Shown piece after piece: positions 14,118 through 36,140 of a stretch of 58,610 nucleotides of DNA. Source of the DNA: a virus (lineage: Duplodnaviria > Caudoviricetes); the IMG/VR virus record IMGVR_UViG_3300046007_005839, positions 1-58,610 of that record; one strand, given 5' to 3'. The position numbers and the translations under genes were made by a program. Within the stretch, counting starts at the first letter, position 1. Each line of letters opens with the position of its first letter. The notes beneath the pieces were generated by a model, which saw only the letters and a list, made by a program, of their open reading frames with translations, made no database searches and was not told the DNA's origin.

Positions 14118-14119
14118 AG

Positions 14120-14332
14120 TTATTCTTTGGGTAGGGCATACCATCCTTCCGGGATGGTAATTCTATTCTTTGATTTTACTTTCCGGCCGCTTGAATCTAA
14201 AACCCACACTCGGGCTTTTACTGACTCGGCCAATCTCACTGGCTGCCCGTTGGGCACGTAGATCACTCTCGATGAGCAACTCGCGCTCATGAGCGTCAAT
14301 GCGAGCACGCAGATCTTGTCTAAGCTTTTCAT
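14120..14332 (-). CDS. Putative lipoprotein (o-spanin-like)
   Basis: MKSLDKICVLALTLMSASC has a hydrophobic stretch and lipobox Cys. Overlaps 14163-14423 in another frame, as in Rz/Rz1 pairs. Confidence 0.6.
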   Translation of the reverse strand: MKSLDKICVLALTLMSASCSSRVIYVPNGQPVRLAESVKARVWVLDSSGRKVKSKNRITIPEGWYALPKE

Positions 14333-17315: not shown

Positions 17316-17332
17316 AGCTGTCAGGTTGCCAA
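17316..17332 (-). promoter_or_regulatory. sigma-54-type -24/-12 promoter (tail fibre)
   Basis: Minus strand TTGGCAACCTGACAGCT = GG-N10-GC. Intergenic, just downstream of a terminator. Confidence 0.65.
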
Positions 17333-17372
17333 TCCTAGATTGGGTTGCTTTTTAGGGTCATGTTATAACTCC

Positions 17373-17402
17373 AAAAAGCAACCCACTCTTTCGAGTGGGC
17401 TG
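17373..17402 (-). terminator. Intrinsic terminator of the capsid operon
   Basis: Minus strand CAGCCCACTC-GAAA-GAGTGGGTTG-CTTTTT. Confidence 0.85.
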
Positions 17403-17408
17403 GTTGTA

Positions 17409-17900
17409 TTACGGCAGAGGCTGACGGTCGATATTATAACCGCCAGCGCCAGTCGCGCTCAGCTGCAGACCAAAGGTCGTGCCTGCAGGATAAGTCGGCG
17501 TGAAGGTCACGGTGCCGTTGGCGGGCAATCGGAACGTAAACACGCGACGCGCCTGATTAGTGGCCGCAGCGACAGTGATGTTGTCAACCTTCAGCACGGT
17601 GTTAGTGTAGCTCTGAGCCACGCCGGTGAAGTTAGTGAAGGACATCACGACATTCGTGGTGTACTGCACAGCACCAGTGTACGCAGCAAACACACGATTG
17701 GTGCTACTAGCAGAGTCATTGTCATAGACAACGACAGTGTTAGCGGCGCCGCTGGTGTCAGTGAGCTGGATGTTGTTGATCGAGACACCAGTCGTAGAAA
17801 CGACGGTGATGCCCGAGCTAAACGTGCCAGAGATGACTTCAGCGAAGACCAGAGCGGCCATCGCCATGAACGAAACGAAGTATTTAAGGAACTGCTTCAT
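17409..17900 (-). CDS. Thr/Asn-rich beta protein with signal-peptide-like N-terminus (capsid decoration position)
   Basis: 163 aa, starting MKQFLKYFVSFMAMAALVFA. Directly downstream of the MCP gene. Confidence 0.7.
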   Translation of the reverse strand: MKQFLKYFVSFMAMAALVFAEVISGTFSSGITVVSTTGVSINNIQLTDTSGAANTVVVYDNDSASSTNRVFAAYTGAVQYTTNVVMSFTNFTGVAQSYTNTVLKVDNITVAAATNQARRVFTFRLPANGTVTFTPTYPAGTTFGLQLSATGAGGYNIDRQPLP

Positions 17901-17934
17901 TGTTTTGTGAGTTAGTTGTTGCTGTCGTTATCTA

Positions 17935-19233
17935 TCAGACGAAGAGCGACGGGGCGATCTGGCGGCGATAGATGATGGGGATGACGTTACGGTTGGTGTT
18001 GCCGATGATGCCGAGCACGGTGTCAGCGATCAGCTGCAAGAACTCACCGTACTTGTTGGTGTCGAGGTTGTTCGAACCGTAGTTGACCAGCACGTTGTCG
18101 GTCAGGCGCACTTCGCCATTCCAAGTGAGCTGGTTAAAGCGCTTGCCGTTGATCGAAGCGCCAGTGAACTCGCTGGGCGGCGGACCCACGTCGATCTGCT
18201 CATAGGCGTTATAGCCAATGAGGAACGCGACGCCGATCGGAGCAGCCGCATAAGCGGGATTGATGACGGTCTGACGCGTGGCATTCGGGGTCGAATAGCC
18301 GCTGTCAGGCAGCAACAGCTCGATCTCGGGCGCAGGCATCGTTCCGTCCTCAGCGAAGCGCAACGGATAGAACTCTTCGCGGAAGATGATGTTCGGCCCA
18401 ATAGCGCCCTGGAAGGAGCTATTCAGGAGGTTCATCGCCAGCGGCTTGGTGTTCAACACGTGAGTGTCGAAAGCGAGACCTTCATAGATCTCAGAGCCAC
18501 CGAGCAAAACGTACTTGCCCTTCGACATTTCATTGTCAGCCGGAGCGCCGCTCTGCATGCCTTCCATCGGCGGGATCATCAGGTAGTTCTTCGCGTAGGA
18601 AGCGACGGCCTGAATCTGTCGATAGGAGAGGAAACCGTTCTCATCGGAACCAATCTTGGCGGCCGCAGCGGCAACCCAAGCAGTGTCCTTGATCGCGCTG
18701 GTGTCGGTCGGCAGAGCAGCCGGGGCGTTCACCAAAGGCAGCTCGCCAGCGGTGGCATTGCCAACGATGTACACGAACGGCGAGTTCTGGAACACGTTGT
18801 CGCGCGTGAAGAAGTCGTAGCCGACAGCGATCTGCTTCGAGAGATCCTCAGCGGCAAACTTCAGCTGCTTCGTGCGGAAATCGCGGAAGCTAGGCAGGAA
18901 GTTGAACTGAGGAGATTCGAAGTTATGGCGCTTGACGCGGCTCTGATTCGTGCGCTCCCAAGTGCTCGCCACGGTCTTGAGCGGCAACTCGGTGATGTTC
19001 TTCGGGCGATGAACCTGATTGACGATCGGAGAGTTCTCCGCGATCACACCCTGCAGGATGTCACCCATGTTCTGTTTCCACTTGATCTTGGGAAACATGT
19101 CCTTCCAGCGCGACCACATCTGCATCTTCTTGGTCTGCTGGATCGCCATCCAGATCGGAAGGCGGTTGTAGTTAGCGATGTCTTGCTGATTCCAAAGGCC
19201 GCTTGAACGCGGCAAGTCCCATGTTGCTGGCAT
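17935..19233 (-). CDS. Major capsid protein (putative)
   Basis: ~432 aa, positioned after portal and scaffold. Strongly biased codon usage, own promoter, operon terminator downstream. Start taken at MPATWDL. Confidence 0.75.
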   Translation of the reverse strand: MPATWDLPRSSGLWNQQDIANYNRLPIWMAIQQTKKMQMWSRWKDMFPKIKWKQNMGDILQGVIAENSPIVNQVHRPKNITELPLKTVASTWERTNQSRVKRHNFESPQFNFLPSFRDFRTKQLKFAAEDLSKQIAVGYDFFTRDNVFQNSPFVYIVGNATAGELPLVNAPAALPTDTSAIKDTAWVAAAAAKIGSDENGFLSYRQIQAVASYAKNYLMIPPMEGMQSGAPADNEMSKGKYVLLGGSEIYEGLAFDTHVLNTKPLAMNLLNSSFQGAIGPNIIFREEFYPLRFAEDGTMPAPEIELLLPDSGYSTPNATRQTVINPAYAAAPIGVAFLIGYNAYEQIDVGPPPSEFTGASINGKRFNQLTWNGEVRLTDNVLVNYGSNNLDTNKYGEFLQLIADTVLGIIGNTNRNVIPIIYRRQIAPSLFV

Positions 19234-19388
19234 TGTTATACTTTCGTTTTTGTTTGATTCATCAGGGCAACAAAAAAGCCCTGACATCTCAAACGGTTAT
19301 TGGTTAGGTCTGTCCTAGCCGTAACCGCGTAGAGAGCAGAGCTTCTAGCGGAATCTCTCTGGGAGATTCGGTCTGACATTCGTTGTTT

Positions 19389-19405
19389 TGCTAACGATAT
19401 GCCAG
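19389..19405 (-). promoter_or_regulatory. sigma-54-type -24/-12 promoter (major capsid)
   Basis: Minus strand AAGT-CTGGCATATCGTTAGCA = GG-N10-GC, intergenic between scaffold and MCP. Confidence 0.8.
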
Positions 19406-19426
19406 ACTTTATTTTATTCAAAAAGA

Positions 19427-20569
19427 CTAATCATCTCCGAACATTCCGCCATCAGACAGCGGGATATCATCGCCGCCTGTGGATTTGCCCATTGGGCCTG
19501 CGCTTGGCGGAGGGATCACGCCGGGCTTTTGTTTCTGCTGGGCGATGTAGGCTTGAAATGCCTTAGCCATACGCAGATTGCCGATCATTGCATAGTGGGC
19601 GATCTTACGCGCGTCGGCCGCAGTCACGCTATCGGGAATGATCTTCTCAAGCAATGGCACATAGGTTTGTTCTTCGGGCGTGAGCTTGTCGGGATCAATG
19701 TCCTTAAAGATCTTCTTGAAGCTGCTATTGATAAACTCACGCTCTTCTGCGATTTTTGATTTATATTTGTCCGGGAATGTCTTGAAGCCATTAAAAGACT
19801 TCTCGTAGTTTGACTGGGCGCGACGATAGGCTTCAGTAAGTTCCAATTCCAGCGCAGGATCATGTTGTCCGCCACGACCGGGCTGAATGGTCTTAAAGAC
19901 AGGATTGCCTTCAGCGTCATAACCCTCAAGAAGCTCAAACGGCTTATTCTGCTTGAGCGCTACGATAGCATTCTTCAACGAGCCAACTTCGAAGCGATCT
20001 GTTTCGAGCTCGGCTTGAATCTGATTGTAACCCGTGTCGAGTTTGTAAGCTTCCGGATGTTGAGTGTAATGCTTGGGAATGTCAGCTTGCTTTTTGAATG
20101 CTTCATACCACTTCGGCAACTGCTCACGGACGGCATTGTAGGTTTGATTGGGAAGCTTCTTTAGGACAGAGACGACTTCATCGGGCAGATTGCTATAGTC
20201 TCGGCCTTGTTGATTTTGCGTCGGAGTAGTTTCAGTCTTTGGCGCCTCTGTCTTAGAAGTCTCTTCAGTCTTCGGCTTTGTCGACTTGATCGCCTCAGTG
20301 ACATCTTTGGGAAGATCAAACGGATCTGCTTCGTCGCTTGAGGTTTCCTCTACAGGAGTTTCAGTCTTCTGCTCAGCGGGTTTAGCCTCCGCTTTAGGCA
20401 GAAGCTTATTGACATCGAATGACGTGGAATCTTCGCCATCAAAGTCAAACGAGATGTTTTCGTTTGGCAAAGACGTTGGCGCCGCTGGAGGCAAGGGCGC
20501 CGAGGAAGGTCCGGTGTTGATGTTGAACGGCGTTGAGGCCGCCGGTGCTGGGGATGCTGCGGAGTCCAT
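19427..20569 (-). CDS. Capsid scaffolding protein (putative)
   Basis: 380 aa with an acidic low-complexity N-terminus and helical body, located between portal and MCP. Confidence 0.65.
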   Translation of the reverse strand: MDSAASPAPAASTPFNINTGPSSAPLPPAAPTSLPNENISFDFDGEDSTSFDVNKLLPKAEAKPAEQKTETPVEETSSDEADPFDLPKDVTEAIKSTKPKTEETSKTEAPKTETTPTQNQQGRDYSNLPDEVVSVLKKLPNQTYNAVREQLPKWYEAFKKQADIPKHYTQHPEAYKLDTGYNQIQAELETDRFEVGSLKNAIVALKQNKPFELLEGYDAEGNPVFKTIQPGRGGQHDPALELELTEAYRRAQSNYEKSFNGFKTFPDKYKSKIAEEREFINSSFKKIFKDIDPDKLTPEEQTYVPLLEKIIPDSVTAADARKIAHYAMIGNLRMAKAFQAYIAQQKQKPGVIPPPSAGPMGKSTGGDDIPLSDGGMFGDD

Positions 20570-20574
20570 AGGAG

Positions 20575-20778
20575 TTATTGCGTGAGTTCTGCGATGTGTT
20601 GTTTAATGTCTTCGAACGTCTTTGCTCGAAGGAGATCTTCTTGTGTGGGCATAGAAGAACAGGCTTTGTGCATTGCTGCTTTAAGCCTTTTGTTTTGTTC
20701 TTCAGAGATCCAAGCGAGGAAATGTAGAGTCTCCGCGCTATTTGCCCACATAATCCAGTTAGCCTTGCTGGGTTGCAT
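20575..20778 (-). CDS. Small hypothetical protein
   Basis: 67-aa ORF between portal and scaffold, a typical position. Confidence 0.65.
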   Translation of the reverse strand: MQPSKANWIMWANSAETLHFLAWISEEQNKRLKAAMHKACSSMPTQEDLLRAKTFEDIKQHIAELTQ

Positions 20779-22558
20779 TAGGTTGCTGAGCTAGTCGCTG
20801 CTCGACGGCTTGTTGAAGTTGCTGGAAGGATTGCGCCTCGGCGGCAAACTCAGGCTTCAACTGACCCGTCGCTTCATCCGTGACAACGGCCTGAAGAGCT
20901 TGACCGAGACCTTGGATAAGCTGTGAGTCGTTGCCTTGGCTGAGAATCTTCGACCACTGATCATACTTCTCGGGATAACGAAGACGCACGTATTCCTTCA
21001 TCATCTCTTGGCCAATGGGCGTACCTTGGAACATCGGCAAATCTTGCTGGATGTTCGTAATGCGCTGCTGCTTTTCTACGAAATCAATGTCGCCCGCGGG
21101 CTTTACTTCGTATTGCTTGCTAAGAATCGCTTCTTTCTCAGCGGGATCAGAAACCTCAATCAAAAACTTGATCGAGCCTTTCTTTGCCTCACTCTGCACA
21201 ATCGGCCACGTCATCGTGAGGACATCGCGTAGGAAGATACTGAACACAAGCGCAGCTGTACCCGTAAGCATGCCTTGCTGCTGCTGGGCAGCCTCGATCT
21301 CGGTCGCAGTCTTACGAGAATCTTTGCGATTATTGACAGCCCACGCGACCTGATTGTTCTCCATCGCGTTCTGCTGCGTAATGGCTTCAATCCCCTTAAA
21401 GATCATCGGGTCGGGCCACGGCGCAGTGAAGGCCTTCATAGGAGTCTTCCAGATCGCGTTGTTCTTGATCTTATACTGCAACTGCGCAGGCGCTACACCA
21501 TCAAGATTAGCGCCATCGGGCGACCACATTGTGTTGGCTGCTTGCGTACAACCATTGACCGCCGCAGTCATCAAGGTCGTGGCGGCTTCTTGCTTATGAT
21601 AATCTTCGACCGCTCGGCCCTCAGCCTCATCGTGTTTGCGATTTTCTTTGATCTCTGAACGCTTGACCGCAATGGGATAATAGGTCAGATGAACGGGCTT
21701 ATTGACATAAGTCGGCTCAGAGGTCATTGCCATCGGGTCAATGTTGATCTCAGGCACAGACTCCTCAATGCCATTGCTAAACGGCAAAGGCTGCTTGAGC
21801 CACTGGCGCGAATCTTTATAATACCAGCCGCGATAGACGAAGCCGTTGACTTTTACAAAGGTCTCATAAATCACCAAGTCGTCGCCTATGACGTTGACTT
21901 CTTCCGAGAGCAAGCGTTTAGCGATAGCTTTGTATGCATCACTGCTCTTGTCAAAGTTTTCAAATGAGTCCCAGTGATAGAAACTCACGGCCGTGATCAC
22001 GTGCTTGATCAAGATCGCAGGGCTATCTTGCAGAGACTTTAGACGACGATCGTATACGATCTCGTTAAACGGAATCGTCTCCATCGAGACGCCGCCGAGC
22101 TTGGTGTTGTCGGCCTTGACCATCATGTAGCCAATGCCATTAAGCTCTGCGCCATCGAGCACTTCAATGTAAGGAATCTCCCAGCCGGGATATTGAAGCA
22201 CGCGTGTGAACTCTTGATCGAGATAAGAGTTGTCGCCGGGGACAAACGTCGCCATCCGTGGGGATTGCTTTAGGTAAGAAAGCAACGGAGGCAACGCTTG
22301 ATTGATGTTTTGGTTGATAAGACGAACACCAATAAAAGTCTGATTCTCCTGAAGAAGACCCGCCGAACGCATCTGTTCAACGTCAGCTTTATTCGAGCGC
22401 AGACGCCGATTGGTGACCGTGGTCGCCTCTACAGCACCGTGCGACGAAATATATTGGCTAAACAACCCATTGGCGGTATTGAGGTCCAATAGGTTCTTTT
22501 GCCCAGCTTGCGCTAAGATAGCGGATGTTTCTGGATTGGTTGCGGATTCTTCGTTCAT
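20759..22558 (-). CDS. Portal protein
   Basis: ~600 aa, helical, containing the KTATEI motif. Follows the terminase. Start at 22558 or 22579. Confidence 0.8.
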   Translation of the reverse strand: MNEESATNPETSAILAQAGQKNLLDLNTANGLFSQYISSHGAVEATTVTNRRLRSNKADVEQMRSAGLLQENQTFIGVRLINQNINQALPPLLSYLKQSPRMATFVPGDNSYLDQEFTRVLQYPGWEIPYIEVLDGAELNGIGYMMVKADNTKLGGVSMETIPFNEIVYDRRLKSLQDSPAILIKHVITAVSFYHWDSFENFDKSSDAYKAIAKRLLSEEVNVIGDDLVIYETFVKVNGFVYRGWYYKDSRQWLKQPLPFSNGIEESVPEINIDPMAMTSEPTYVNKPVHLTYYPIAVKRSEIKENRKHDEAEGRAVEDYHKQEAATTLMTAAVNGCTQAANTMWSPDGANLDGVAPAQLQYKIKNNAIWKTPMKAFTAPWPDPMIFKGIEAITQQNAMENNQVAWAVNNRKDSRKTATEIEAAQQQQGMLTGTAALVFSIFLRDVLTMTWPIVQSEAKKGSIKFLIEVSDPAEKEAILSKQYEVKPAGDIDFVEKQQRITNIQQDLPMFQGTPIGQEMMKEYVRLRYPEKYDQWSKILSQGNDSQLIQGLGQALQAVVTDEATGQLKPEFAAEAQSFQQLQQAVEQRLAQQPNATQQG

Positions 22559-22562
22559 AAGA

Positions 22563-22865
22563 TTATTCCTCTTCGTCAAACATGGCGTTTTCCTTCAGAG
22601 GCACGTCGCCTTGAGGAGCCATGGTCTTGCGCTTAGACAAAGCTTTCGGAACGGTAGCGTTGCTGTCGCCGCCCTTGGCTTCGTTGTTCGGGCCTTTGCC
22701 ATTGGTGTATTCGTCGCTGTCGGAATCGTTAGGCTCTTCTTGATCGTCGCCGATTTCGATCTCGACTTTCGGGCCACCTTTGGCCATCTTCTTCTGCGCG
22801 TAAGCCAACTCTTCCGGGCTAAGTGACGAGAAAAACTCGTCGATGTAATCCATTGATCCGTCCAT
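22563..22865 (-). CDS. Acidic hypothetical protein
   Basis: 100-aa ORF filling the terL-portal gap. Confidence 0.65.
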   Translation of the reverse strand: MDGSMDYIDEFFSSLSPEELAYAQKKMAKGGPKVEIEIGDDQEEPNDSDSDEYTNGKGPNNEAKGGDSNATVPKALSKRKTMAPQGDVPLKENAMFDEEE

Positions 22866-22867
22866 AA

Positions 22868-24640
22868 TTATTTAGAGGTTACGAATTTGTGATATTGCCC
22901 GCGCAATTGTTCACGCGGCTCAGCCGAATTTAGCGTTTCTTGTGCCGGTCTGTGAGTCATCTGACCCCATAAAAGCGTGAGTTCTGTCTTTTCATCAAAA
23001 GTTAACGCGCCTTTTTTATTCTTTTCAAGCAGCTCAGCAAACCTACTTTCGGGTTCTGTTGAGTGTAAAGTTTCTTCTTTAAAAACAGGCAACGGAACGC
23101 TGTCAAAACACAACGCCAACGCGTCTGCTCGATCGGGCGAAGATAAACCACGAGAGCGCATTTCGGGCTTGGGCTCTAAATACGTGACAATTCCCTTAAC
23201 CGAAAAGCCACGCGTGCAAAGTTGTTGGCGAGTGAGATCGTCGTTGATTGCAGGAAAGGCACGATCTTCAATAGCACGCTTAAGACGATTCCAGTTTTCA
23301 ACGCCTCTGTTCTTGTAGAAATTTGGGTTGGTTGAACGGGCTTCGTTTCGTACTGGCACGACGTCATAACCTGCATTTTGCACACGCTGCACGATGGGTC
23401 GTCCCAGACCGCCATCGTCAATACGTACTTCAGAGGGCGTAATGTTGAATTCCTTAATCCAACTGATGATCTGATTATGGAGAATTGCCTCGTTGCGAAT
23501 CTTTGTTGTTCGAAGGTGGAGTTTTCCATGGACAAAGAAGTACGCCACAGTCTCGTCGCCGCCGAGCGATAAGTCGATGCCCGCTCGATTGGGCAATCCA
23601 AACGTACGAGGTGAATTGTTTGGGTAATTCTCGAAGAGGGTGGATGGAATGAATGCAGCCTCGTCGAGTGAGGTAAACTCAGCCAAGACTTGGCTTCGAT
23701 AAATAAGGGATTGCTCGCCATGTTCGTCTTTAAGATGCTCGATGTGTTTGCCGAGAAGATGAGGACAATCGAATGCTGTGACACGGCGCCAATAGAATTC
23801 GCCTATTATTAAAGGATCTGGAAAGGTATATTTGGCTTTTGTGCAACGCTTGAAGAAATGGCCAGAGTTCTTACCGGGCGAAGAGATTTCAAGCCAGTAG
23901 TTATAACCTGTAAAGCGCGAGAAAGCTTGGAACATTTCGTCCGTGATTGATTTTGCCTCGTTGATGATCACAGCCATCTCGGCGCCGGGCTCGTCAAACG
24001 GGTGACGCCCTTCGGCTTTGCCGGGGTCATCTGTCACGAAGCATTTGATCTCGCTGCCTGTGTCATTACAAGTGATCAAGAACTCAACGATCTCAAAGAC
24101 CTTGCGGCCATACGAGACATTGATCTCTTCGCATATGTTTTTTATGTACTTATACGTCTGATCTTTAAGCTGCTCGTACGAAGATGACGTAATGACGCAT
24201 CGAGAACGGACTTTGGAAAGGCAAAACCAGACAGCGAAGGCGCTAATAACGACCTGATCTTTTCCGCTTCCGTTGGCCGCGACAAGATTGTAGTATAGCG
24301 GCGTCTTGTCGGTTGGTCGAGTTTTAGGCAGATCGAGATCATTGATGTCTGTGTATCCTGCGAGTTGAAATAGGGTTTCTGCTTGCCACTTGTAGAGCTT
24401 TAGGTCGGGCCGATGGGCGAGCAGAAGATCCGCGGGCGTGTCGATTTGATGCGCGATGTAGCGTTTGTTGACTGGAGTTTGCTCGGCTACAACGACAGCC
24501 TCAGGCGCCTTAGCCGGAGTCTCGACGGCTTTCTTTTTGGCGGCTTTTGCGCGCTCTTTTTCAGCAGCTTTTTCTGCCTCCAGCGAACGACGGGCCTGAA
24601 CGAGCTTTAGTGTGTCGGGCGAGATTGGGGCTTTGATCAT
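22868..24640 (-). CDS. terL: Terminase large subunit
   Basis: Walker A AANGSGKD, Walker B-like IINEA, coupling motif ISSP, nuclease motifs GIDLSLGGD and SPDRADAL. Confidence 0.9.
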   Translation of the reverse strand: MIKAPISPDTLKLVQARRSLEAEKAAEKERAKAAKKKAVETPAKAPEAVVVAEQTPVNKRYIAHQIDTPADLLLAHRPDLKLYKWQAETLFQLAGYTDINDLDLPKTRPTDKTPLYYNLVAANGSGKDQVVISAFAVWFCLSKVRSRCVITSSSYEQLKDQTYKYIKNICEEINVSYGRKVFEIVEFLITCNDTGSEIKCFVTDDPGKAEGRHPFDEPGAEMAVIINEAKSITDEMFQAFSRFTGYNYWLEISSPGKNSGHFFKRCTKAKYTFPDPLIIGEFYWRRVTAFDCPHLLGKHIEHLKDEHGEQSLIYRSQVLAEFTSLDEAAFIPSTLFENYPNNSPRTFGLPNRAGIDLSLGGDETVAYFFVHGKLHLRTTKIRNEAILHNQIISWIKEFNITPSEVRIDDGGLGRPIVQRVQNAGYDVVPVRNEARSTNPNFYKNRGVENWNRLKRAIEDRAFPAINDDLTRQQLCTRGFSVKGIVTYLEPKPEMRSRGLSSPDRADALALCFDSVPLPVFKEETLHSTEPESRFAELLEKNKKGALTFDEKTELTLLWGQMTHRPAQETLNSAEPREQLRGQYHKFVTSK

Positions 24641-25182
24641 AACTTAAAGGGCCGGGGTTTTTGCGCCGCAGGCTGTTCGGATGTTGGGGATTGAGTAGGT
24701 TGTTGAGGAGCTTCTACAGTCGCCTCTACGGTTATTGGGGCCTCGATGGTGATCTCTTTAGCGGTGAGACTTTGGCCACCTAATGCGGCCCGGGCGCGCA
24801 TAGAGGCAGACGTATAGGCTTCGTTTATTTTGAGAAGCAATTCGCCCGAGCCTACGTTAAGATCAAGATGCCGCTTATGATATCCGCGCTTGGCGCCGTG
24901 GGCATACTTAGCTGCGTTTAGGCGGGCATAGACGCCGCTTTCTTCATTACGGGCTATGTCCTTGATGATGCCCATCATCTCTTTAGCTTCTTGCTCAGAG
25001 ACATCGTCGGTGATGTCGTCTTCTTTGAGAGCTTCTTTTCTCAAGGCTACACTACCGCCAGTAGCTTCTAGCGCAAGTTTTACGACCATACTATCAACCT
25101 CCAGAGCCGCACTTATTTCTTCACAACTCATCCCGGCCCTTCTTAACCCCAAAATCTGATTTCTTAACATCAAGTTACTCAT
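24637..25182 (-). CDS. terS: Terminase small subunit (putative)
   Basis: N-terminal HTH (LRRAGMSCEEISAALEV) and ARLNAAK motif. Overlaps the terL start by 4 bp. Confidence 0.65.
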   Translation of the reverse strand: MSNLMLRNQILGLRRAGMSCEEISAALEVDSMVVKLALEATGGSVALRKEALKEDDITDDVSEQEAKEMMGIIKDIARNEESGVYARLNAAKYAHGAKRGYHKRHLDLNVGSGELLLKINEAYTSASMRARAALGGQSLTAKEITIEAPITVEATVEAPQQPTQSPTSEQPAAQKPRPFKL

Positions 25183-25195
25183 ATAAAACGGTTAA

Positions 25196-25212
25196 AGCTT
25201 TTAAGATGCCAG
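25196..25212 (-). promoter_or_regulatory. sigma-54-type -24/-12 promoter (late operon/terS)
   Basis: Minus strand AAGT-CTGGCATCTTAAAAGCT = GG-N10-GC. Shares AAGTCTGGCAT with the capsid promoter. Confidence 0.8.
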
Positions 25213-25312
25213 ACTTAAATACACTTTTAAAGGCTAAAATTTTACAAAAATCTGTGTGCATGCATGTTCGGACATTCGCAAAAAAGTTCGGGTCTTTCTT
25301 GTGCGTGTCGGG

Positions 25313-25462
25313 GATACGTAGGAGTGTGATGCATTGAGCTGTGATGGGTAGAACATGGATGCATAGGAGTGTGATGCATTGAAGAGGGATGCATTGGAGT
25401 CTTAGGGATAGAAGTGCAAGGAATTGCGCTGTGATGCATTGCAGAGGGATGCATTGAGGTGC
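25313..25462. repeat. Degenerate 15-bp tandem array (GATGCATWG-type units)
   Basis: GATGCAT at 25328, 25358, 25373, 25388, 25433 and 25448, with degenerate units at the intervening 15-bp positions. Confidence 0.9.
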
Positions 25463-25774
25463 TATGTAAATAGCGTTTGCTTCGTGAAGCCTCGAATACA
25501 CAAAACGGGGTCAGGCGATTTTGGGCTTCTTTCCTTTTCAGCCTCAATAACGTATTTCTGGGGGCGTTGAAGTTGTCATATGTTATTTTAAATATTTTTT
25601 TATAGTGTTAACTCCTTCATATTGTATTAAGTGTATTTTTTTGTTTTTTTTCTCTTAATATGGTATTTGACCTAAAACAAAGATAAGCACAAAATTATAA
25701 AACCCCATTTTGTGTATTTCCTACCCTTTTCCTAACTTTTAACTAAAAAACTACCTAAAGAATTTTCTTGCCTA

Positions 25775-25816
25775 TTTTGAGAATTACAAGCGTTTTTTGA
25801 GATTTACAAGTGTTTT
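25775..25816. repeat. 20-bp direct repeat x2
   Basis: TTTTGAGAATTACAAGCGTT / TTTTGAGATTTACAAGTGTT. Confidence 0.8.
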
Positions 25817-25892
25817 GCTGGCTTGTAGGGCATTAGAAAGTCTTTAGTGTTTTTTAGGTTAGATTAGAGTTTCTTATAGTTTTTCTTTAAGG

Positions 25893-25920
25893 TTGACTCT
25901 TTTGGAGTTTTCTTTAGTAT
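25893..25920 (+). promoter_or_regulatory. Possible sigma-70-type early promoter
   Basis: TTGACT-16 bp-TAGTAT upstream of the first + strand gene. The AT-rich context makes a chance match possible. Confidence 0.3.
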
Positions 25921-25980
25921 TCCCGTTTTTTACTTAAAAACGAGGCTTTTGGCGTACTTAAAAGGCTTGTCAAGTTAAGG

Positions 25981-26012
25981 TTAGGTTACGATTAGGTTAC
26001 GATTAGGTTACA
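25981..26012. repeat. 11-bp tandem repeat x3
   Basis: TTAGGTTACGA TTAGGTTACGA TTAGGTTACA. Confidence 0.85.
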
Positions 26013-26271
26013 TTTTGGGTTTTTGATTGACCGTTTTCGGCCCATAGAGTCTAGTCGTCACCGTCAGTCTTTGTTCTTTTCCGAAAACACGTTAGAGCCT
26101 TGTGGGATTCTTTCCCACCGGACTCGTTTTGTAGTGTTTTTACAGAATCCTTTGTTTTTGAATCTCTTTTGATTCAACGGGACAAGTCATATTTATTTGT
26201 GTGTGTTAGGTTCACTCTTTGATTTATTCAAAGTGTGAAGTTAAAAACTAAAACTAAAACCTAATACTAAA

Positions 26272-26643
26272 ATGCAAAACAAAAACAACACTACCGTCAA
26301 TGTCACCGTCATTCCTTTTGTGCGCGACTTGGTTTCTTTGTGCGCGATTCACCCTGCCGATTTTGTTAGAGAGATTGGCAAGGCTGAGAGCCTCAAGGAT
26401 ACAGCCAAGGCTGTTGGTATCAGCAAAGGCTCTGCGATTGGTCCTATCGTGCGTAATAGCTTCGCCAAGGGAACGCATAAGAGTGTGATTGAAAGCGAAA
26501 CTGCCCGATGGGAAGCCTTGAGCGGAATCGCCAATGCCTTTGGAGTGCGCTTAAATTCCTTGCTGCGGGCCTGCGAAGTTCAGACTGGTAGCAGCATGCA
26601 AGAACGCCTTAACGCTCTTCCTGAGGCTCCGGCAAAGGCTTAA
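26272..26643 (+). CDS. First early gene, hypothetical (possible HTH)
   Basis: 123 aa. SLKDTAKAVGISKGSAI is HTH-like. A-rich leader. Confidence 0.65.
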   Translation: MQNKNNTTVNVTVIPFVRDLVSLCAIHPADFVREIGKAESLKDTAKAVGISKGSAIGPIVRNSFAKGTHKSVIESETARWEALSGIANAFGVRLNSLLRACEVQTGSSMQERLNALPEAPAKA

Positions 26644-26654
26644 ACGGTAACACT

Positions 26655-27605
26655 TCACACTCTCCCGTGTTATGCGGGAGAGTGAACCTAGCACACACAA
26701 GCCCGGTTTAGATAATACAAAAAACCGGATTCAATAAAAGCATAGCGTGCCTTTGTGACTAACACTCCAAAGGAACGGCAATAATTCTTTAGAAGTAGCG
26801 TGAAGCTATTAAGGCAAAGTGTAAATTGCTTTAAGAGTCTAGGTAAATCGGTAGAAACGCATTTAACCTAGTAGCGGGAAAAGCTAAAGTGTTAAGAGAA
26901 ACACTAGAGAATCGGACAAAGTAGCTTTGTGGACATTGAATCCCTTTTGTTAAAGTAGGAATATTAAACCGGTTTTCTTTGTTTAATGTTAAGACCTTAA
27001 AATCAAACGCATTTACCAAAGAAACGTTAGAAGTTCAACTTACAAATTGCGGGATTTACTCGCGATTCTTCCTTGCGTGAATAGGAAAGGCTTTTGTTAG
27101 TAGTCTTTGTGAGGTTGTCTAGGTTCTACGATAGAACGAACCGATTAAATGCGGGACAACCAACCAAAGAAACGAAAACAAAAGCCCAATAGTCTTTGAG
27201 ACTAGTTTGCTTGGCTAGGCAATAGACCGGAAGCAAACTAAAAACGTGTTAGGTGCAACGCCTAATGACGGCTCTTTGCGTTAACCTTCCTTTGGTTTAA
27301 GAAACTGTCTAAAGGATTTAACATGACAGAAACGCAAAAAACAAAAGACTCTTTGTAGGTTACCATTGGTAGCTTGCCCAATGAAATAACCTCAAAAACT
27401 AAATCAAAAGCCTTGCGCTATTGCCTTGTCTTTTACAAGGAACTACAATAGGTGACTCGCAAGGCTTTTGCATTTAGTCTTTGCTTTGTAGTGTTGCGCA
27501 TTATCCACAACGCAATATCCACGTTTATAAATAACTCTATTCGAGTCTTCTCTTTCTTCAAACTATCCACACACTACAAGGCAAAGACTAGATGCAAAGT
27601 CTAGT
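26655..27605 (+). ncRNA. Candidate large structured non-coding RNA
   Basis: ~950 nt with no + strand ORF in the track, near-continuous hairpins and several long-range stems (see findings). Strand is inferred from flanking genes. Confidence 0.55.
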
Positions 27606-27613
27606 TCTTTGTT

Positions 27614-27844
27614 ATGCCCAAAACATACACCCAGAAAAAATTTGACAGATTTAACTCTGTCAATTTAGGCAAATACTTTGCCTCGAAGCAATCCAAAATG
27701 CACAAGCAACTTGTGCCTTTGTCAAAGCGCAACGCCAAGAAAGACAAGCAATCTGTCCACAAGGCAAAGGCTTGGCTCTGCCATAAACCAAGTGTCTCAC
27801 GTATTGTGAGAGCGACTGAGAAAAGTAAAATTGATTGGATTTGA
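27614..27844 (+). CDS. Basic hypothetical early protein
   Basis: 76-aa Lys-rich ORF at the head of the early gene run. Confidence 0.5.
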   Translation: MPKTYTQKKFDRFNSVNLGKYFASKQSKMHKQLVPLSKRNAKKDKQSVHKAKAWLCHKPSVSRIVRATEKSKIDWI

Positions 27845-27849
27845 TATTT

Positions 27850-27957
27850 ATGAAACAAAGACAGAAAGATGAATTGATTCTTATTATCGTTGGCTCTGTC
27901 ATATTGTTGACAGCGCTTTATTACTTTATCAAAGCCATCGTGGGCTTTGATAATTAA
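27850..27957 (+). CDS. Small single-TM protein (35 aa, not in ORF track)
   Basis: MKQRQKDELILIIVGSVILLTALYYFIKAIVGFDN fills the gap between neighbouring genes. Confidence 0.55.
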   Translation: MKQRQKDELILIIVGSVILLTALYYFIKAIVGFDN

Positions 27958-27968
27958 ACAACAAACAT

Positions 27969-28283
27969 ATGAAAATTACACTAGACAAACAAGAAGCCGA
28001 AAGATTGTTGTCTCATTACTTCTATCTCAAGCTTGACGAAGATGTCAAAGTTGAGATCTCCGACATGGAGCCTATTCGTGAGGTTCACGCCGTAACATAC
28101 ACGAGCCTTATGGTGCAAGATCTCTGGTCTGACCTTATGCAGCCATCGGACAAAGACGAAAGACTTGGGCCTGTGAAGATTCGCATGATGAAGCTCTTCA
28201 TGGGCTTGCATCTCAAGCTAACAGGTTATCCTTGCAGTCTTATTAACGCCAAGAACTTTATTGAGAGTCATAAAGCTTTTTAA
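27969..28283 (+). CDS. Hypothetical early protein
   Basis: 104 aa with AAACATATG start context. C-terminal SLINAKNFIE resembles L7/L12-CTD-like phage proteins. Confidence 0.7.
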   Translation: MKITLDKQEAERLLSHYFYLKLDEDVKVEISDMEPIREVHAVTYTSLMVQDLWSDLMQPSDKDERLGPVKIRMMKLFMGLHLKLTGYPCSLINAKNFIESHKAF

Positions 28284-28287
28284 TAAT

Positions 28288-28545
28288 ATGAACTGTGAAG
28301 ATTATCCATGCTGCGGCCATGAGCCGGGCGGTTGTCCTATTGTAGATCAGAATGGCGTTGCGCGTTATTCTTGTGCAACTTGTGGAGTTCTTATGCCTCC
28401 AAAGGCAAGGAGTGCCGTCTGTGAGCCTTGTCACAAGCGCTGGGCATTTGAGGAGTTCTCCGACGAGATGCCAGACAAGTATTATGAAGACGAGCCATCT
28501 GATTCTGACACAGGATGGGATTTAGGAAAGGAAGAAAGTTTATGA
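28288..28545 (+). CDS. Cys-rich (Zn-binding) hypothetical protein
   Basis: CEDYPCCGH...CATC...CEPC. Confidence 0.7.
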   Translation: MNCEDYPCCGHEPGGCPIVDQNGVARYSCATCGVLMPPKARSAVCEPCHKRWAFEEFSDEMPDKYYEDEPSDSDTGWDLGKEESL

Positions 28546-28802
28546 CAAATCGTTGCTTACGTTGTTTACAAATCATCGACAGCGATCGCAAAGCATTAGG
28601 CTTTGATCGCTGTATCAAATGTGCGCCACAATGGCAATACAAAGGCGCTCTCAACTTCGGCCACAAAACAGGCGGCTCTGTGCAACCAATGCATCCTGAT
28701 GCTTTTAAGGTGCATAAGCGTGTGACACATCGTTCTGCAAAAGGTACGAATGGCCGTGCTTTTCAGCAAGGTACTTGCGTAATCACAATAAAAGATGCAT
28801 AA
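28542..28802 (+). CDS. Zn-finger hypothetical protein (DksA/TraR-type C4-like)
   Basis: CLRC-QII--DR-ALG--RCIKC spacing. Confidence 0.6.
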   Translation: MTNRCLRCLQIIDSDRKALGFDRCIKCAPQWQYKGALNFGHKTGGSVQPMHPDAFKVHKRVTHRSAKGTNGRAFQQGTCVITIKDA

Positions 28803-28805
28803 CAT

Positions 28806-28979
28806 ATGATCATCATAATCCCATCACACATAAAGGGTTTCTACTCTTATTGTCTCGCGCCGGTTAGTTATACATTAGATGTTCATATCTACATACAGAA
28901 GCTCTTTGCAGAGAATCTTTTGTTTGTAGATTTCAACCTTACACAAGAAGAGATAGGCCAGATTCTCGGAGGTAATTGA
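28806..28979 (+). CDS. Small hypothetical protein (57 aa, not in ORF track)
   Basis: AACATATG start. Open to TGA at 28979, directly before the terminator. Confidence 0.45.
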   Translation: MIIIIPSHIKGFYSYCLAPVSYTLDVHIYIQKLFAENLLFVDFNLTQEEIGQILGGN

Positions 28980-28981
28980 GT

Positions 28982-29035
28982 CTCCACAAAGCACAAGCCC
29001 TTTAAGGAGGGCTTCTTTTTGTGGAGCTTTTTTTT
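28982..29035 (+). terminator. Intrinsic terminator of the early cluster
   Basis: CTCCACAAAG..AAGCCCT-TTAAGG-AGGGCTT..TTTGTGGAG followed by T8. Confidence 0.8.
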
Positions 29036-29051
29036 GTTGTCAAGAAATAAC

Positions 29052-29068
29052 TTGGCACTTCAAGAGCT
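29052..29068 (+). promoter_or_regulatory. sigma-54-type -24/-12 promoter
   Basis: TTGGCACTTCAAGAGCT = GG-N10-GC, just after a terminator and upstream of 29179. Confidence 0.75.
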
Positions 29069-29178
29069 TTATCCCTTTGCCGGTCCTGTTGGTGACTGTG
29101 CGATAATGTTAGCGGTTCAACGTAAAACCGTAAACATCCCAAAACAAACAACCAACAATTCAGAAAACATAAATCAAA

Positions 29179-29826
29179 ATGAGCACTAAGAACCTCGAAC
29201 TCGTCGCCTCCTTTGCCGGTAGCGTGTTCCAATCCGACGCCGACGGCAATCCTATCTTCGCCACGAGCGAGCGTCATGTCCGTAAGACTGCCAAGAGCGC
29301 AGAGCGCACCGTGTCGTTTCAGAAGCCCGTCTTGGCTGTGAGCGATCTCGCTTACTACATCAAGCGCGGCGAAGCTCTCGCTGAGATCCCGACCGAGCAC
29401 ATCACCAAAACCAAGAACGAAGACGGCTCGACGACCGAGACCAAGCGCATCTCGAATGCTCTCAGTGACTTGGTCGCCGATCATCTCAATGATATCGCCG
29501 AAGATGCTTCTGAGGCCTATCTCAGCAAGGGCAATACGCCCGATTACTTCGCCGCCTTTATCTACGGTGTCAGCGCCGACCGTGAGACTGAGAAGTCTGT
29601 CCTCAAGAAGATCGAGAGCATCCGCTCGGAGATAGGCTCCATTGTGTTCGCTCTCGCTGGCGAGTGGAACGACGACACTGCGCGTTCGTTGGGCGTGAGC
29701 GACAAGGACGCTGCGATCGCGAAGCAGTCCAACCTCATCGCCTCTCTGGCCCAGCTTCTCGCCAAGGCCAATGAGCTCAATGCCGCGAAGGCCAAGCGCG
29801 AGGCCAAGAAGACTGCGAAGGTGTAA
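29179..29826 (+). CDS. Hypothetical protein with Lys/Ala-rich C-terminal tail, probably highly expressed
   Basis: 215 aa with codon bias like the MCP gene. Bracketed by a promoter and a terminator. Confidence 0.8.
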   Translation: MSTKNLELVASFAGSVFQSDADGNPIFATSERHVRKTAKSAERTVSFQKPVLAVSDLAYYIKRGEALAEIPTEHITKTKNEDGSTTETKRISNALSDLVADHLNDIAEDASEAYLSKGNTPDYFAAFIYGVSADRETEKSVLKKIESIRSEIGSIVFALAGEWNDDTARSLGVSDKDAAIAKQSNLIASLAQLLAKANELNAAKAKREAKKTAKV

Positions 29827-29861
29827 TTTGTAGGAGTAATCAAAATACTCAACAAACAACA

Positions 29862-29900
29862 GAGCCTCTGTGGGAGCAATCTCACAGAGGCTTTTTCTTT
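29862..29900 (+). terminator. Intrinsic terminator
   Basis: AGCCTCTGTGGGA-GCAA-TCTCACAGAGGCT followed by TTTTCTTT. Confidence 0.85.
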
Positions 29901-29939
29901 AAGGTGTTCCAACTTTTGGCATCCCACAGGTGCCAAAAT

Positions 29940-29956
29940 TTGGCATACTTTAGGCT
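29940..29956 (+). promoter_or_regulatory. sigma-54-type -24/-12 promoter (rpoN/replication operon)
   Basis: TTGGCATACTTTAGGCT = GG-N10-GC, 34 bp before the rpoN ATG. Preceded by two more TTGGCA half-sites in alternating orientation. Confidence 0.65.
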
Positions 29957-29989
29957 CTATCGCAATAGTCTGCACCAACCATCAGACAA

Positions 29990-31282
29990 ATGAAATTCTC
30001 TCTCTCAATAAATCAAACTCAGAGTCTTATTCTGAGTCCACAACTCCAGCAATCTCTCGCGCTTCTACAAGCTCCTCTCTGTGAGCTTCATACCCTGATG
30101 GAGTCTTTCGTCGGAGATAATCCGTGCGTTGAACTCCTTGACCGAGAGATGCCTGAAGAAGAGATCTTGTTTAGGAATGACAAAGCAGAACTTCCACAAG
30201 ACATGCAGTGGACTTCTTCTTATAACCTTCCACCCAAGGAAGAATATCCGTTGGAGAATAACCCATCGCGCGGAGAGACTCTTGAAGAATACCTTGAGAG
30301 GGAATTGACAATCGCTTCTCACGATACGAGCATCATCCATCTACTCGACGAGCGGGGATTCTACATGGGCGATCTTGATAGCCTCACAACCCCACAAAGA
30401 GATGCTTTGCGTTTTATCCGCACTCTCGAACCAAAAGGCCTAGGCGCTTTGGGATTAGCAGATTGTCTTTGTCTCCAGCTAGATGAGAACTCACTAGCCT
30501 ATCGCATTCTTCAACAAGACGAAGACTTATTCACGCGCCGTCAGATTCCTCTCTTAAGCAAAAAATACAACGAGACCTTCACGACCATAGAGAATCTTTA
30601 CAAGTCTCTAGCAAAGCTTAAATACAACCCAGCCATAGAGTTCTCTGCCCCAACGCACACGCCAAAAGATCCAGAGATCTTTCTCGACAAAGATCTCACG
30701 ATCACGATCCCGAACGAGCGATTGCCTGTCTACAAAATCAATCAAGGCTATCTAAACTATCTCGATAAGCTCTCGCCGCAAGACAGAGAATACATCCGAG
30801 AGCGCGTAAAGCAGGGGAAGTTCTTGATTCGCTCGATCATGCAGAGGCAAAGCACTTTGTTTAATGTCACAAAGGCGATTGTAGATTATCAATCTGAGTT
30901 CTTCAAAACCGGAAATATCAAGGATCTCAAGCCTCTCATCATGGCGCAGATCGCCCTCGTGTGTGAGATCCATGAGACCACTGTCTCCCGCGCGGTCCAT
31001 AACAAATACATAAGCACACCAAAAGGGACATATGAACTTCGCTTTTTCTTCACCAGCGCAATCATCAACCATGAACAAAACACCATGCAGAGTAACCTAA
31101 GCATTAAGAATCAGATCGCAGAGATCATCTCGCGAGAGGACAAGTCTCGCCCTTTGAGTGATGAAGATATCGTTGTCCTATTAAAGAACACCATCGCTCG
31201 CCGCACAATCGCCAAATACAGAGCCGAACTAGGCATTCAACCATCTCACTTAAGAAAAGTCTATGCCTCCTCTTCAAAATGA
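29990..31282 (+). CDS. rpoN: RNA polymerase sigma-54 factor (phage-encoded)
   Basis: Region I LSPQLQQSLALLQ, core-binding LDERGF and LEPKGLGA...CLCLQL, HTH IHETTVSRAVHNKY, PLSDEDI, and RpoN box ARRTIAKYR. Confidence 0.97.
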   Translation: MKFSLSINQTQSLILSPQLQQSLALLQAPLCELHTLMESFVGDNPCVELLDREMPEEEILFRNDKAELPQDMQWTSSYNLPPKEEYPLENNPSRGETLEEYLERELTIASHDTSIIHLLDERGFYMGDLDSLTTPQRDALRFIRTLEPKGLGALGLADCLCLQLDENSLAYRILQQDEDLFTRRQIPLLSKKYNETFTTIENLYKSLAKLKYNPAIEFSAPTHTPKDPEIFLDKDLTITIPNERLPVYKINQGYLNYLDKLSPQDREYIRERVKQGKFLIRSIMQRQSTLFNVTKAIVDYQSEFFKTGNIKDLKPLIMAQIALVCEIHETTVSRAVHNKYISTPKGTYELRFFFTSAIINHEQNTMQSNLSIKNQIAEIISREDKSRPLSDEDIVVLLKNTIARRTIAKYRAELGIQPSHLRKVYASSSK

Positions 31283-31940
31283 AAACGAAGAAACAATCAC
31301 GAGCGAAGCCCTCTGGGGATTGCTCTTCCCAGCCTGTGCCTGTCATGTCGATACAGAGCGAGGTCACTTCATCCGACGAACTGCAGGGAATAATCTTGCC
31401 CATGCGATTGTTGCTACAAATGAAACAGCGGAGTGGGTCAAGGCTCACTGCGCAGGTGAGCATATCCATATACAGAGAATCGACGAAGATGGTCTCAGCT
31501 ACAGCGTCATCTGGGACTCGACCGAATGGAACCTTTCCGACGAACGCAGAAGAACACTTCGTGCAAACCACCTTGCCTCTGACATATCATTCCTCCATAA
31601 AAAAGCGCAGGAACTCAGGATCGAAATGATCGCCGACGCTTTATCAAAAGCTAAGTTATTCAACAAACAAAAAGCCTTCGAAGTAGCCGCCGCGATCACA
31701 TCGCAGGGCGAAGAAGTCTATCTCAATAAATCCCGCCAGCTCAACGACGCCCTTCGCGGGGCATTCAACAATATCAACTGTTACTTTCCCATTGAAGAAG
31801 TTCTCCGTATAGTAGACACAAGAAACATCCTAACCTATGAACAAAGCCCTACAACAGAAGACAATCAAAGAATCACTGCGCTTGAGGAAGAAGATGGACG
31901 CGGCCACGAAGAAGAACGTCCTGTTGAGACAGAAACTTGA
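31263..31940 (+). CDS. Hypothetical protein
   Basis: 225-aa ORF overlapping the end of rpoN. Confidence 0.65.
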   Translation: MPPLQNENEETITSEALWGLLFPACACHVDTERGHFIRRTAGNNLAHAIVATNETAEWVKAHCAGEHIHIQRIDEDGLSYSVIWDSTEWNLSDERRRTLRANHLASDISFLHKKAQELRIEMIADALSKAKLFNKQKAFEVAAAITSQGEEVYLNKSRQLNDALRGAFNNINCYFPIEEVLRIVDTRNILTYEQSPTTEDNQRITALEEEDGRGHEEERPVETET

Positions 31941-32142
31941 AGATGAGATGCTTTCTCTCCAGAAAAAACTAACCCCACTTCTTAACAAACGCGACGCGAT
32001 CAACAAGTGCTACACGCAACTTGACAAACCCACCGCGGAGAGTATCGTGTTCGGAGAGTACATCTCTCTTATCTCCCGCACGCCACAAGCATACGGCTTC
32101 AAGAACGCCGAAGAAGTGATCGCGAAGTTGATGGACCTATAA
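31837..32142 (+). CDS. Hypothetical coiled-coil protein
   Basis: 101-aa ORF leading up to the helicase start. Confidence 0.55.
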   Translation: MNKALQQKTIKESLRLRKKMDAATKKNVLLRQKLEDEMLSLQKKLTPLLNKRDAINKCYTQLDKPTAESIVFGEYISLISRTPQAYGFKNAEEVIAKLMDL

Positions 32143-32149
32143 TAACATT

Positions 32150-34935: not shown

Positions 34936-35092
34936 ACAATACGTTAGTAAATACAAACTCGGCTCGCTCGACGAGGAGTATCTTAACAGAGAAGAGATGG
35001 CCGCCGCGCGCAAGGCTATCATGAATTACAAACTAAAAGATCCCGGGCCGTCTTTGTATAGAAAGAAACCTAAGAATAAAAAGAAAAAATGA
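34910..35092 (+). CDS. Small basic hypothetical protein
   Basis: 60 aa. Its stop overlaps the ATG of the activator gene. Confidence 0.6.
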   Translation: MSKFHQRGEQYVSKYKLGSLDEEYLNREEMAAARKAIMNYKLKDPGPSLYRKKPKNKKKK

Positions 35093-36085: not shown

Positions 36086-36140
36086 CTAAAGAACAAAGCC
36101 AAGGAGGCCAAGCCGTGAACCCTAACAATAAAAACTAACT

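Follow-up and report, generated by a model that had tools for sequence, protein, structure and literature searches.

Transcription by way of sigma-54 is seen as belonging to cells, where activators that sense signals and bind enhancers keep it under tight control. The viral record IMGVR_UViG_3300046007_005839 (the window, which is the whole record of 58,610 bases, rated 100% complete and of class 'linear') carries five short sites with the -24/-12 geometry of sigma-54 promoters, together with a gene, rpoN, for a sigma-54. This raises the question of whether the five sites are promoters and, if so, which sigma-54 reads them. We consider it very likely that they are genuine sigma-54-type (-24/-12) promoters and that, along with one to three others, they govern the middle and late genes of this uncultured lake phage. 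The sites and the terminator-like hairpins near them are as follows.

25196-25212, minus strand: predicted promoter of the putative terS gene, CTGGCATCTTAAAAGCT; GG 28 nucleotides (nt) ahead of the ATG
19389-19405, minus strand: predicted promoter of the putative major capsid protein (MCP) gene, CTGGCATATCGTTAGCA; GG 116 nt from the start codon, leader about 90 nt
17316-17332, minus strand: predicted promoter of the tail-fibre gene, TTGGCAACCTGACAGCT; GG 28 nt ahead of the ATG, 47 nt past a terminator
29052-29068, plus strand: predicted promoter of gene 29179-29826, TTGGCACTTCAAGAGCT; 125 nt from GG to the start codon
29940-29956, plus strand: predicted promoter of rpoN, TTGGCATACTTTAGGCT; GG 48 nt ahead of the ATG
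17379-17402, minus strand: terminator-like hairpin upstream of the fibre promoter
28995-29014, plus strand: terminator-like hairpin upstream of the gene 29179 promoter
29861-29894, plus strand: terminator-like hairpin of 15 pairs between gene 29179 and the rpoN promoter

The five 17-mers lie at the coordinates and on the strands that an earlier note on this DNA had claimed. The GG-N10-GC spacing is exact in all five, and every site is non-coding and points in sense orientation into the adjacent gene. Three of them (fibre gene, gene 29179 and rpoN) follow terminator-like hairpins, and AAGTCTGGCAT is common to the terS and MCP sites. At -24 the flank is TGGCA throughout, followed by T (three sites), A (one) or C (one), and the -12 flank is AGC at 4/5 sites, GGC at 1/5 and TTGC at 0/5, again as the note had it.

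The pattern is not enriched in the window as a whole: TGGCA-N8-GC occurs 7 times against 8.82 expected, a count reached by 79 of 100 shuffles, and TGGCA-N7-AGC occurs 4 times against 2.30 expected, reached by 24 of 100. Five of the seven TGGCA-N8-GC matches fall within the 4072 of 58,610 bases (6.95%) that are non-coding (binomial P = 3e-5), each directed into the next gene, while the remaining two (18762, minus strand, and 28633, plus strand) lie inside open reading frames (ORFs). The non-coding share is based on a greedy ORF set made for this analysis, from which a spurious 56-aa TTG-started ORF (29019-29189, crossing a terminator) was removed and to which six short pieces were added by hand. 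The signal lies in this placement and not in the whole-window count.

Conservation in related phages had been named as a further check. Related viral loci were gathered by searches with RpoN (20 loci) and with the putative capsid protein (14 loci), and the contigs scored were those with 200 nt upstream of the orthologous gene; some are near-identical, so not all are independent. GG-N10-GC is kept at the equivalent place in every contig, with a drifting spacer: 10/10 for terS, 10/10 for MCP, 10/10 for the fibre gene, 16/16 for gene 29179 and 18/18 for rpoN. Among the terS orthologues the -24 element reads TGGCA, TGGCC, TGGCT or TGGTC and the -12 element AGC (four) or TGC (six, including two TTGC). 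The MCP site is kept even in the locus L033, whose MCP is 53% identical (CTGGCACGCTAGCTGCT), and orthologous sites precede the MCP genes of the rpoN-less genomes G009, G006 and G007. Five spacer variants occur at the fibre site (AACCTGAC, AACTCGGC, AATTCGGC, AACTAGGC and AATCGGAC) with TTGGCA and AGCT fixed, and the -12 element of the rpoN site is AGC or GGC in the 18 contigs. With a weight matrix built from the conserved sites, the five score 25-30 bits and the next window position 15.5. When each family in turn was left out of the matrix, the terS, gene 29179 and rpoN sites were each the top non-training match of 117,158 positions, and the MCP and fibre sites ranked 11th and 12th.

The window also encodes a sigma-54 and an activator of the kind that such promoters would use.

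29990-31282, plus strand: rpoN, a 430-aa sigma-54 with activator-interacting region I, core-binding domain and DNA-binding domain with RpoN box
35089-35937, plus strand: minimal enhancer-binding-type activator of 282 aa, Pfam Sigma54_activat (PF00158), 2e-49

The name rpoN holds, as all three Pfam domains score above cut-off: Sigma54_DBD (PF04552) at 2.7e-48, CBD (PF04963) at 2.1e-19 and AID (PF00309) at 6.9e-12. The protein aligns over its full length to E. coli sigma-54 holoenzyme structures (E = 2e-42), and its LSPQLQQSLALLQ, HETTVSR and ARRTIAKYR segments align to E. coli sigma-54. According to PMC7057263, the RpoN box reads the -24 element and the helix-turn-helix (HTH) the -12 element; the phage box is ARRTIAKYR where E. 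coli has ARRTVAKYR, and its -12-reading helix is HETTVSR where E. coli has HESTISR. In nine clade members RpoN is 76-91% identical to that of the window, with HTH and RpoN box invariant. The best 120 database relatives are all 73-96% identical, which shows an abundant clade, and all belong to this same phage clade, so no donor can be named; 113 of them cover at least 99% of the query and have all three domains, and 7 cover 75-92% and have no AID. No PHROG family matched RpoN, and no close match to it was found among catalogued phage records, where RpoN and activator matches reach 28-48% identity, many of them in records that are large or carry bacterial names and resemble host DNA.

The activator is absent from the earlier note and was found here. 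Its motifs are a Walker A (GPSGTGKE), a GAFTGA loop and a Walker B (TAFLDE), with the AAA+ match spanning residues 49-210, and the chain stops 30 residues past GNVR. No HTH DNA-binding family and no receiver or regulatory family matched it; it does match one PHROG of unknown function. The plus strand has no predicted terminator-like site from 29894 to 41137, so the 29940 promoter probably serves rpoN and the activator in a single transcript.

Three further candidate promoters were identified in the window.

40451-40466, plus strand: candidate promoter, TGGCCCAATAAAAGCT followed by CCCTCC, about 64 nt ahead of the ATG at 40516
45025-45040, plus strand: weaker candidate promoter, CGGCCCAAGAAAAGCT followed by CCCTCC, GG 26 nt ahead of the ATG at 45052
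13855-13870, minus strand: candidate promoter, TGGCCCTCTCATTGCT, with the canonical TTGC, just past the stop of gene 13875-14144

The candidate at 40452 keeps GG and GC in 5/5 alignable relatives with a variable spacer, and its G009 orthologue, TTGGCACACCACTAGCTTCCTCCC, stands before the orthologous gene. The candidate at 45026 keeps both doublets in 3/3 relatives, but its spacer is invariant and the T before GG is lost, which makes it the weakest. These two share a 21-nt pattern, with 0.01 expected by chance, that is present in 2-3 copies, always on one strand, in 5/5 relatives (reversed control, 0). The candidate at 13869 keeps GG and GC in 3/3 alignable relatives with 2 to 5 spacer changes; it overlaps a TTG-started reading of ORF 13221-13871, the true start of which is uncertain. 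A look-alike at 39318 on the plus strand was rejected: it lies within a nuclease gene, encodes AHDKLPPP, varies at wobble positions only and has lost its GG in the relative G005 (kept in 15/16 relatives). Also rejected were TGGCA..GC matches in relatives that are coding sequence, either in a membrane-helix ORF (GIGVAL), where they vary at codon third positions, or in the Walker B region of the activator (GTAFLDE).

Taken as promoters, the sites would work as follows. Core RNA polymerase with sigma-54, whether the phage's, the host's or both, would sit on them as a closed complex, and the phage activator, as a bare ATPase acting from solution without enhancer sites, would open them by ATP hydrolysis, so that timing would be set by its accumulation. 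Since a promoter of this type also stands ahead of rpoN and the activator, the circuit would feed back positively and amplify itself; it would need priming, probably by transcripts from early promoters that run through the terminators at 28995 and 29861, or else by an activator of the host. The activator and the promoters would be the old, family-wide part of the system, since most relatives have the activator only and would have to use host sigma-54, and the window's clade would have gained rpoN later, between the existing promoter and gene 31263. A precedent exists in Chlamydia, Salmonella and S. meliloti, where ATPase-only activators turn on sigma-54 regulons and need no enhancers to do so (PMC7482065).

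Several observations weigh against this account. The consensus TTGC stands at none of the five sites; it is a consensus and not an invariant, however, as validated E. coli promoters depart from TGGCACN5-7TTGCT (PMC12316311). The names of two of the genes served, 'MCP' and 'terS', are unconfirmed. The activator and rpoN lie behind a promoter that needs them, which leaves the first round of expression unexplained. RNA-library contigs 88-99% like the structural genes come from four libraries of three studies and have no cover over 25207-28041; being assembled contigs, they carry neither RNA ends nor strand nor level, and give no mapped transcription start. One of them, X19 (record 18), crosses the MCP promoter (19110-19414), which implies read-through or DNA carry-over. 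Finally, at terS, the fibre gene and 45026 (start codons 25182, 17302 and 45052) the GG lies only 26-28 nt ahead of the ATG, and the predicted starts, 1-5 nt ahead of it (about 3 nt at terS), would require near-leaderless translation. A GG-to-ATG spacing of 27-29 nt is kept in 8/10 terS and 10/10 fibre orthologues. Taken as 12 nt past the C of the GC, the predicted +1 positions of the five promoters would fall at about 25185, 19378 and 17305 on the minus strand (terS, MCP and fibre gene) and at about 29079 and 29967 on the plus strand (gene 29179 and rpoN). Given starts this close to the ATG and a Shine-Dalgarno-like motif at only 5/65 genes, the host probably translates leaderless or unstructured A-rich leaders.

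In silico, the predicted capsid-gene leader (19288-19377, minus strand) forms a compact fold with a closing stem from the second transcribed base (-28.6 kcal/mol, z = -3.25; 1 of 200 shuffles as stable); its sequence is conserved in relatives, and no Rfam family matched it. Directly upstream of the rpoN promoter, an inverted repeat TTGGCAT-N7-GTGCCAA occupies 29916-29946, and its right arm forms a palindrome with the promoter -24 element (TGCCAA-AAT-TTGGCA). The arms of this repeat are kept in most clade members with a variable loop, whereas the corresponding promoter of G009 lacks the repeat, which may be an operator that arrived together with rpoN.

If the sites are promoters, whose sigma-54 reads them? 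The earlier note had taken them as the regulon of the phage sigma-54, with a -12 specificity that may have shifted to separate phage from host promoters. Such a factor would prefer AGC over TTGC and run an orthogonal regulon with no cross-reading with the host. We think this quite unlikely, even though AGC at 4/5 sites and TTGC at none would follow from it directly. The relatives with and without rpoN bear on the point. Activator relatives are encoded by 373 of 464 candidate stretches in viral contigs, and the PF00158 activator is present in 5/5 relatives tested; Sigma54_DBD was matched in 2/5 records of one set; among another 30 records with an activator, of which 15 are at least 90% complete, it was matched in one. 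Sites were counted as TGGCAY-N6-yGCW, with y (the -14 base) A or T. The five rpoN-bearing genomes examined are all A-dominant (A/T: G000 3/0, G001 3/1, G004 5/1, G005 4/0, G016 3/0), and 5/7 of the rpoN-less genomes are T-dominant or mixed, which is what a shifted phage factor would predict. Sites with T number 8 in G007 (0.35 expected), 6 in G022 and 5 in G014 (about 0.3-0.5 expected), and A and T sites number 6 + 4 in G024, 3 + 4 in G006 and 3 + 5 in G023 (about 0.3-0.6 expected). The last three thus mix AGC and TGC in genomes that have no phage rpoN.

The closest complete relative without rpoN, G009, argues against a shifted factor more directly. It is complete (direct terminal repeats, 49,848 b), has no Sigma54_DBD match, and is the closest outgroup, with an activator 61% and an MCP 75% identical to those of the window. 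G009 has positional orthologues of five window promoters, and four of them, which serve its counterparts of MCP, gene 29179, gene 31263 and gene 40516, are of the form TGGCAC-N5-TAGC/AAGC. Ahead of the capsid gene the site reads TTGGCACAGCACTAGCA, and ahead of the gene 29179 orthologue it reads TTGGCACAGCCGTAGCT. The equivalent of the window rpoN promoter, GTGGCACAAGCTAAGCT, lies 30 nt upstream of the gene 31263-31940 orthologue. The gene 40516 orthologue is preceded by TTGGCACACCACTAGCT followed by TCCTCCC, and terS by ATGGCATTAGGCTTGCA. AGC-type promoters at the same genes would therefore work in a phage without its own sigma-54. In 51 activator loci of more distant relationship (715 kb), A occupies the -14 position in 30 sites, T in 52, C in 8 and G in 2, with about 5.5 expected of each; most loci are of one -14 type, and only 1/51 carries two or more of each kind. 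Closest to the clade are eight of these loci (L097-L104), which are AGC-type only, except for L102 (in record G006), which is mixed; five of the eight (L098, L099, L101, L103 and L104) lie in records G009-G013, which have no Sigma54_DBD match. Among the rpoN-bearing relatives of the clade, 6/10 have TGC at the terS promoter, and the candidate at 13869 is TTGC. The four rpoN-bearing clade genomes are non-independent, which leaves only two independent rpoN-bearing lineages.

Together with the canonical DNA-reading motifs of the phage RpoN (RpoN box and HTH recognition helix), these observations argue against AGC as the mark of the phage factor. They point to the AGC -12 element as a trait of the lineage, which relatives without rpoN have too and which is perhaps linked to the host. 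Of the earlier claim, the sigma-54-type promoter set survives on its placement, its conservation and the accompanying sigma-54 and activator genes, whereas AGC as a phage-factor signature, and with it the shifted specificity, is not supported.

The second rpoN-bearing lineage is G016 (L148, L152-L154), an unrelated activator-bearing phage with direct terminal repeats (52,003 b). Its RpoN, of 488 aa, is only 33% identical to that of the window, so phages seem to have gained rpoN on more than one occasion. Both independent lineages, this clade and G016, are purely A-type, and two lineages are a hint, not evidence. The coincidence would be explained if AGC were poor for host sigma-54 and better read by the phage factor, which would make a self-contained, self-amplifying switch capturing host core polymerase. 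We regard this as unlikely. AGC relatives without rpoN, such as G009, would then have hosts whose sigma-54 prefers AGC, or would have lost rpoN.

The arrangement around the 29940 promoter bears on the origin of rpoN. In G009, the equivalent of this promoter directly precedes the gene 31263 orthologue, a gene that lies about 100 nt from the gene 29179 orthologue; members of the window's clade have rpoN between the promoter and gene 31263. This gene order is most simply read as an insertion of rpoN behind a sigma-54 promoter that was already in place. Loss of rpoN from G009 is a possible alternative.

The apparent late insertion of rpoN and the presence of the same promoter set without phage rpoN, in G009 and most activator-bearing relatives, would also suit a reading in which host sigma-54 alone reads the promoters and phage rpoN is a decoy for host activators, a competitor for core polymerase, or a gene being lost. 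We hold this to be very improbable. The gene is full length, and region I and the core-binding domain are as invariant across the nine clade members as the HTH and RpoN box; the three domains kept by 113 of the best 120 relatives fit purifying selection on a working sigma factor; and a factor with canonical DNA-reading motifs would be expected to bind exactly these sites. That the sites are not sigma-54 promoters at all, being chance matches or the sites or promoters of another phage factor, is scarcely credible: although the pattern has no window-wide enrichment, the -12 element is non-consensus and no starts are mapped, the sites lie in non-coding DNA in the correct direction, keep both doublets strictly in every relative while the spacer drifts, and co-occur with rpoN and a GAFTGA activator across the phage family, and neither an RNA polymerase domain nor a convincing second sigma factor was found in the window (only a Sigma70_r4-like HTH below the Pfam cut-off, in ORF 34618-34935). 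Genuine sigma-54-type promoters thus remain the reading we favour.

The identities of the genes beside the promoters are of uneven firmness. Matches to Peptidase_S74 and to tail-fibre PHROGs back the name of the fibre gene. 'MCP' is no more than a lead: language-model features of the protein resemble Phage_capsid_3 clusters, but it has no Pfam, PHROG or PDB match, and its AlphaFold model is unusable (mean predicted local distance difference test score 33.7, from a 7-sequence alignment). 'terS' rests on position and a sub-threshold Terminase_6N match (E = 0.1), and likewise 'terL'; PDB sequence searches with the 'MCP' and 'terL' proteins returned nothing meaningful. Gene 29179-29826 encodes 215 aa rich in alanine and lysine, has a sigma-54-type promoter of its own and a terminator on each side, and matched no Pfam or PHROG family. 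Gene and promoter are conserved in rpoN-less G009, and the product is probably a highly expressed middle or late protein.

Window bases 1-9317 and 49280-58600 are copies of a tail and fibre module, 80.9% identical at a period of 49,279 b, and complete relatives measure 49.3-50.7 kb, one with direct terminal repeats. From these diverged end copies and the size of the relatives, the unit genome is probably about 49.3 kb, with a second, diverged tail-module copy added in the record. The duplication would be either an assembly running round a circularly permuted genome into the variant of a second strain, or a real duplicated tail module. In the relative G005, a motif-bearing stretch is likewise repeated, at 72 and 51296.

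Packaging, head and tail genes form a leftward arm from about 25,200, and small early ORFs, gene 29179, rpoN, a helicase, the activator and replication genes a rightward arm from about 27,970. Between the arms lies a 2.8-kb non-coding region, A+T-rich and rich in repeats. Three repeat sets occupy 25328-25456, 25775-25816 and 25981-26011 of this region; they include GATGCATTG in 5 copies of a single orientation (0.88 expected in the whole window), a 20-nt direct repeat of 2.1 copies and the exact 11-nt repeat TTAGGTTACGA in 2.8 copies. These are possibly iterons or operator arrays, for an origin or an early regulator. In the replication genes, a family A DNA polymerase is divided over two genes, 41188-42618 (exonuclease and start of the polymerase domain) and 44017-45021 (end of the polymerase domain), with an ATP-dependent DNA ligase gene (42623-43471) and a 180-aa ORF between the halves. 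A polypyrimidine tract (TCTTTCTTT, 4.2 copies) fills 38493-38531, in the gap ahead of a PD-(D/E)XK nuclease gene.

The phage has a G+C content of 49%. Sixteen lake-water runs contain at least half of the sampled words of the query stretch, and no catalogued phage matched the window at the DNA level; no Rfam family matched anywhere in it. A 4.4-kb contig with a 78%-identical RpoN (L049, genome G039), a fragment of a clade phage, is binned in a metagenome-assembled genome (MAG) of Phycisphaerales. This host link was rejected: by eye the rpoN locus of the MAG is very G+C-rich, and its RpoN is only 27% identical to the phage's, so the binning is probably an artefact. In that distrusted bin, TGGCAY-N5-TTGCW occurs 9 times against 4 in the reversed control, and TGGCAY-N5-WAGCW 9 times against 17, counts that are uninformative.

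Phage-encoded alternative sigma factors for middle and late genes are represented by T4 gp55 and by SPO1 gp28 and gp33/34. The system described here resembles these in that the phage supplies a specificity subunit for host core polymerase that times the late genes; however, the T4 and SPO1 factors belong to the sigma-70 family and need no ATPase, whereas the window phage has a sigma-54 family factor and an ATP-driven activator. With bacterial sigma-54/activator systems it shares the -24 GG/-12 GC geometry, the region I, core-binding domain, HTH and RpoN box of sigma-54, and the GAFTGA AAA+ activator. Bacterial activators may lack a DNA-binding domain, as Chlamydia CtcC does (PMC7482065), or a regulatory domain, as PspF and HrpR/S do (PMC7057263), and in these systems the ATPase domain suffices by itself to turn on an entire regulon. 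The phage differs in that genes and promoters are viral, the activator lacks both domains, the regulon consists of virion and replication genes, and the -12 element is AGC and not TTGC. A Salmonella sigma-54 regulon driven by a promiscuous constitutive activator domain is similarly free of enhancer binding and signal control (PMC3844500); that activator is a laboratory construct, whereas the window phage appears to carry a natural gene of the same design. Among phages, Htm (Gp204) of the T4-like Mosigvirus AV110 has an enhancer-binding-protein-like fold without a GAFTGA loop, and the available part of its description mentions no promoters or phage rpoN (bioRxiv 10.64898/2026.10.06.757011). A 'sigma-54-type regulator' of phage phi1422 is mentioned in passing in the accessible text of PMC3391216, where neither a sigma-54 gene nor mapped promoters accompany it. 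Full-text searches found no literature on a phage-encoded sigma-54 or a phage sigma-54 regulon. As far as could be found, it is new for a whole phage family to run a sigma-54 programme through an activator, and for one of its clades to have gained rpoN.

In summary, sigma-54 appears to drive the middle and late genes of a widespread family of uncultured phages with genomes of about 50 kb. If confirmed, this would be a case of a virus-encoded sigma-54, and the sigma factor, the activator and the 16-nt promoter would make up a compact natural three-part switch that could interest work on orthogonal gene control. The use of AGC or TGC by related phages would provide a natural experiment on the weight of the -12 flank, and the system as a whole would offer a simple model of phage temporal control through the ATP-dependent closed-to-open promoter step.

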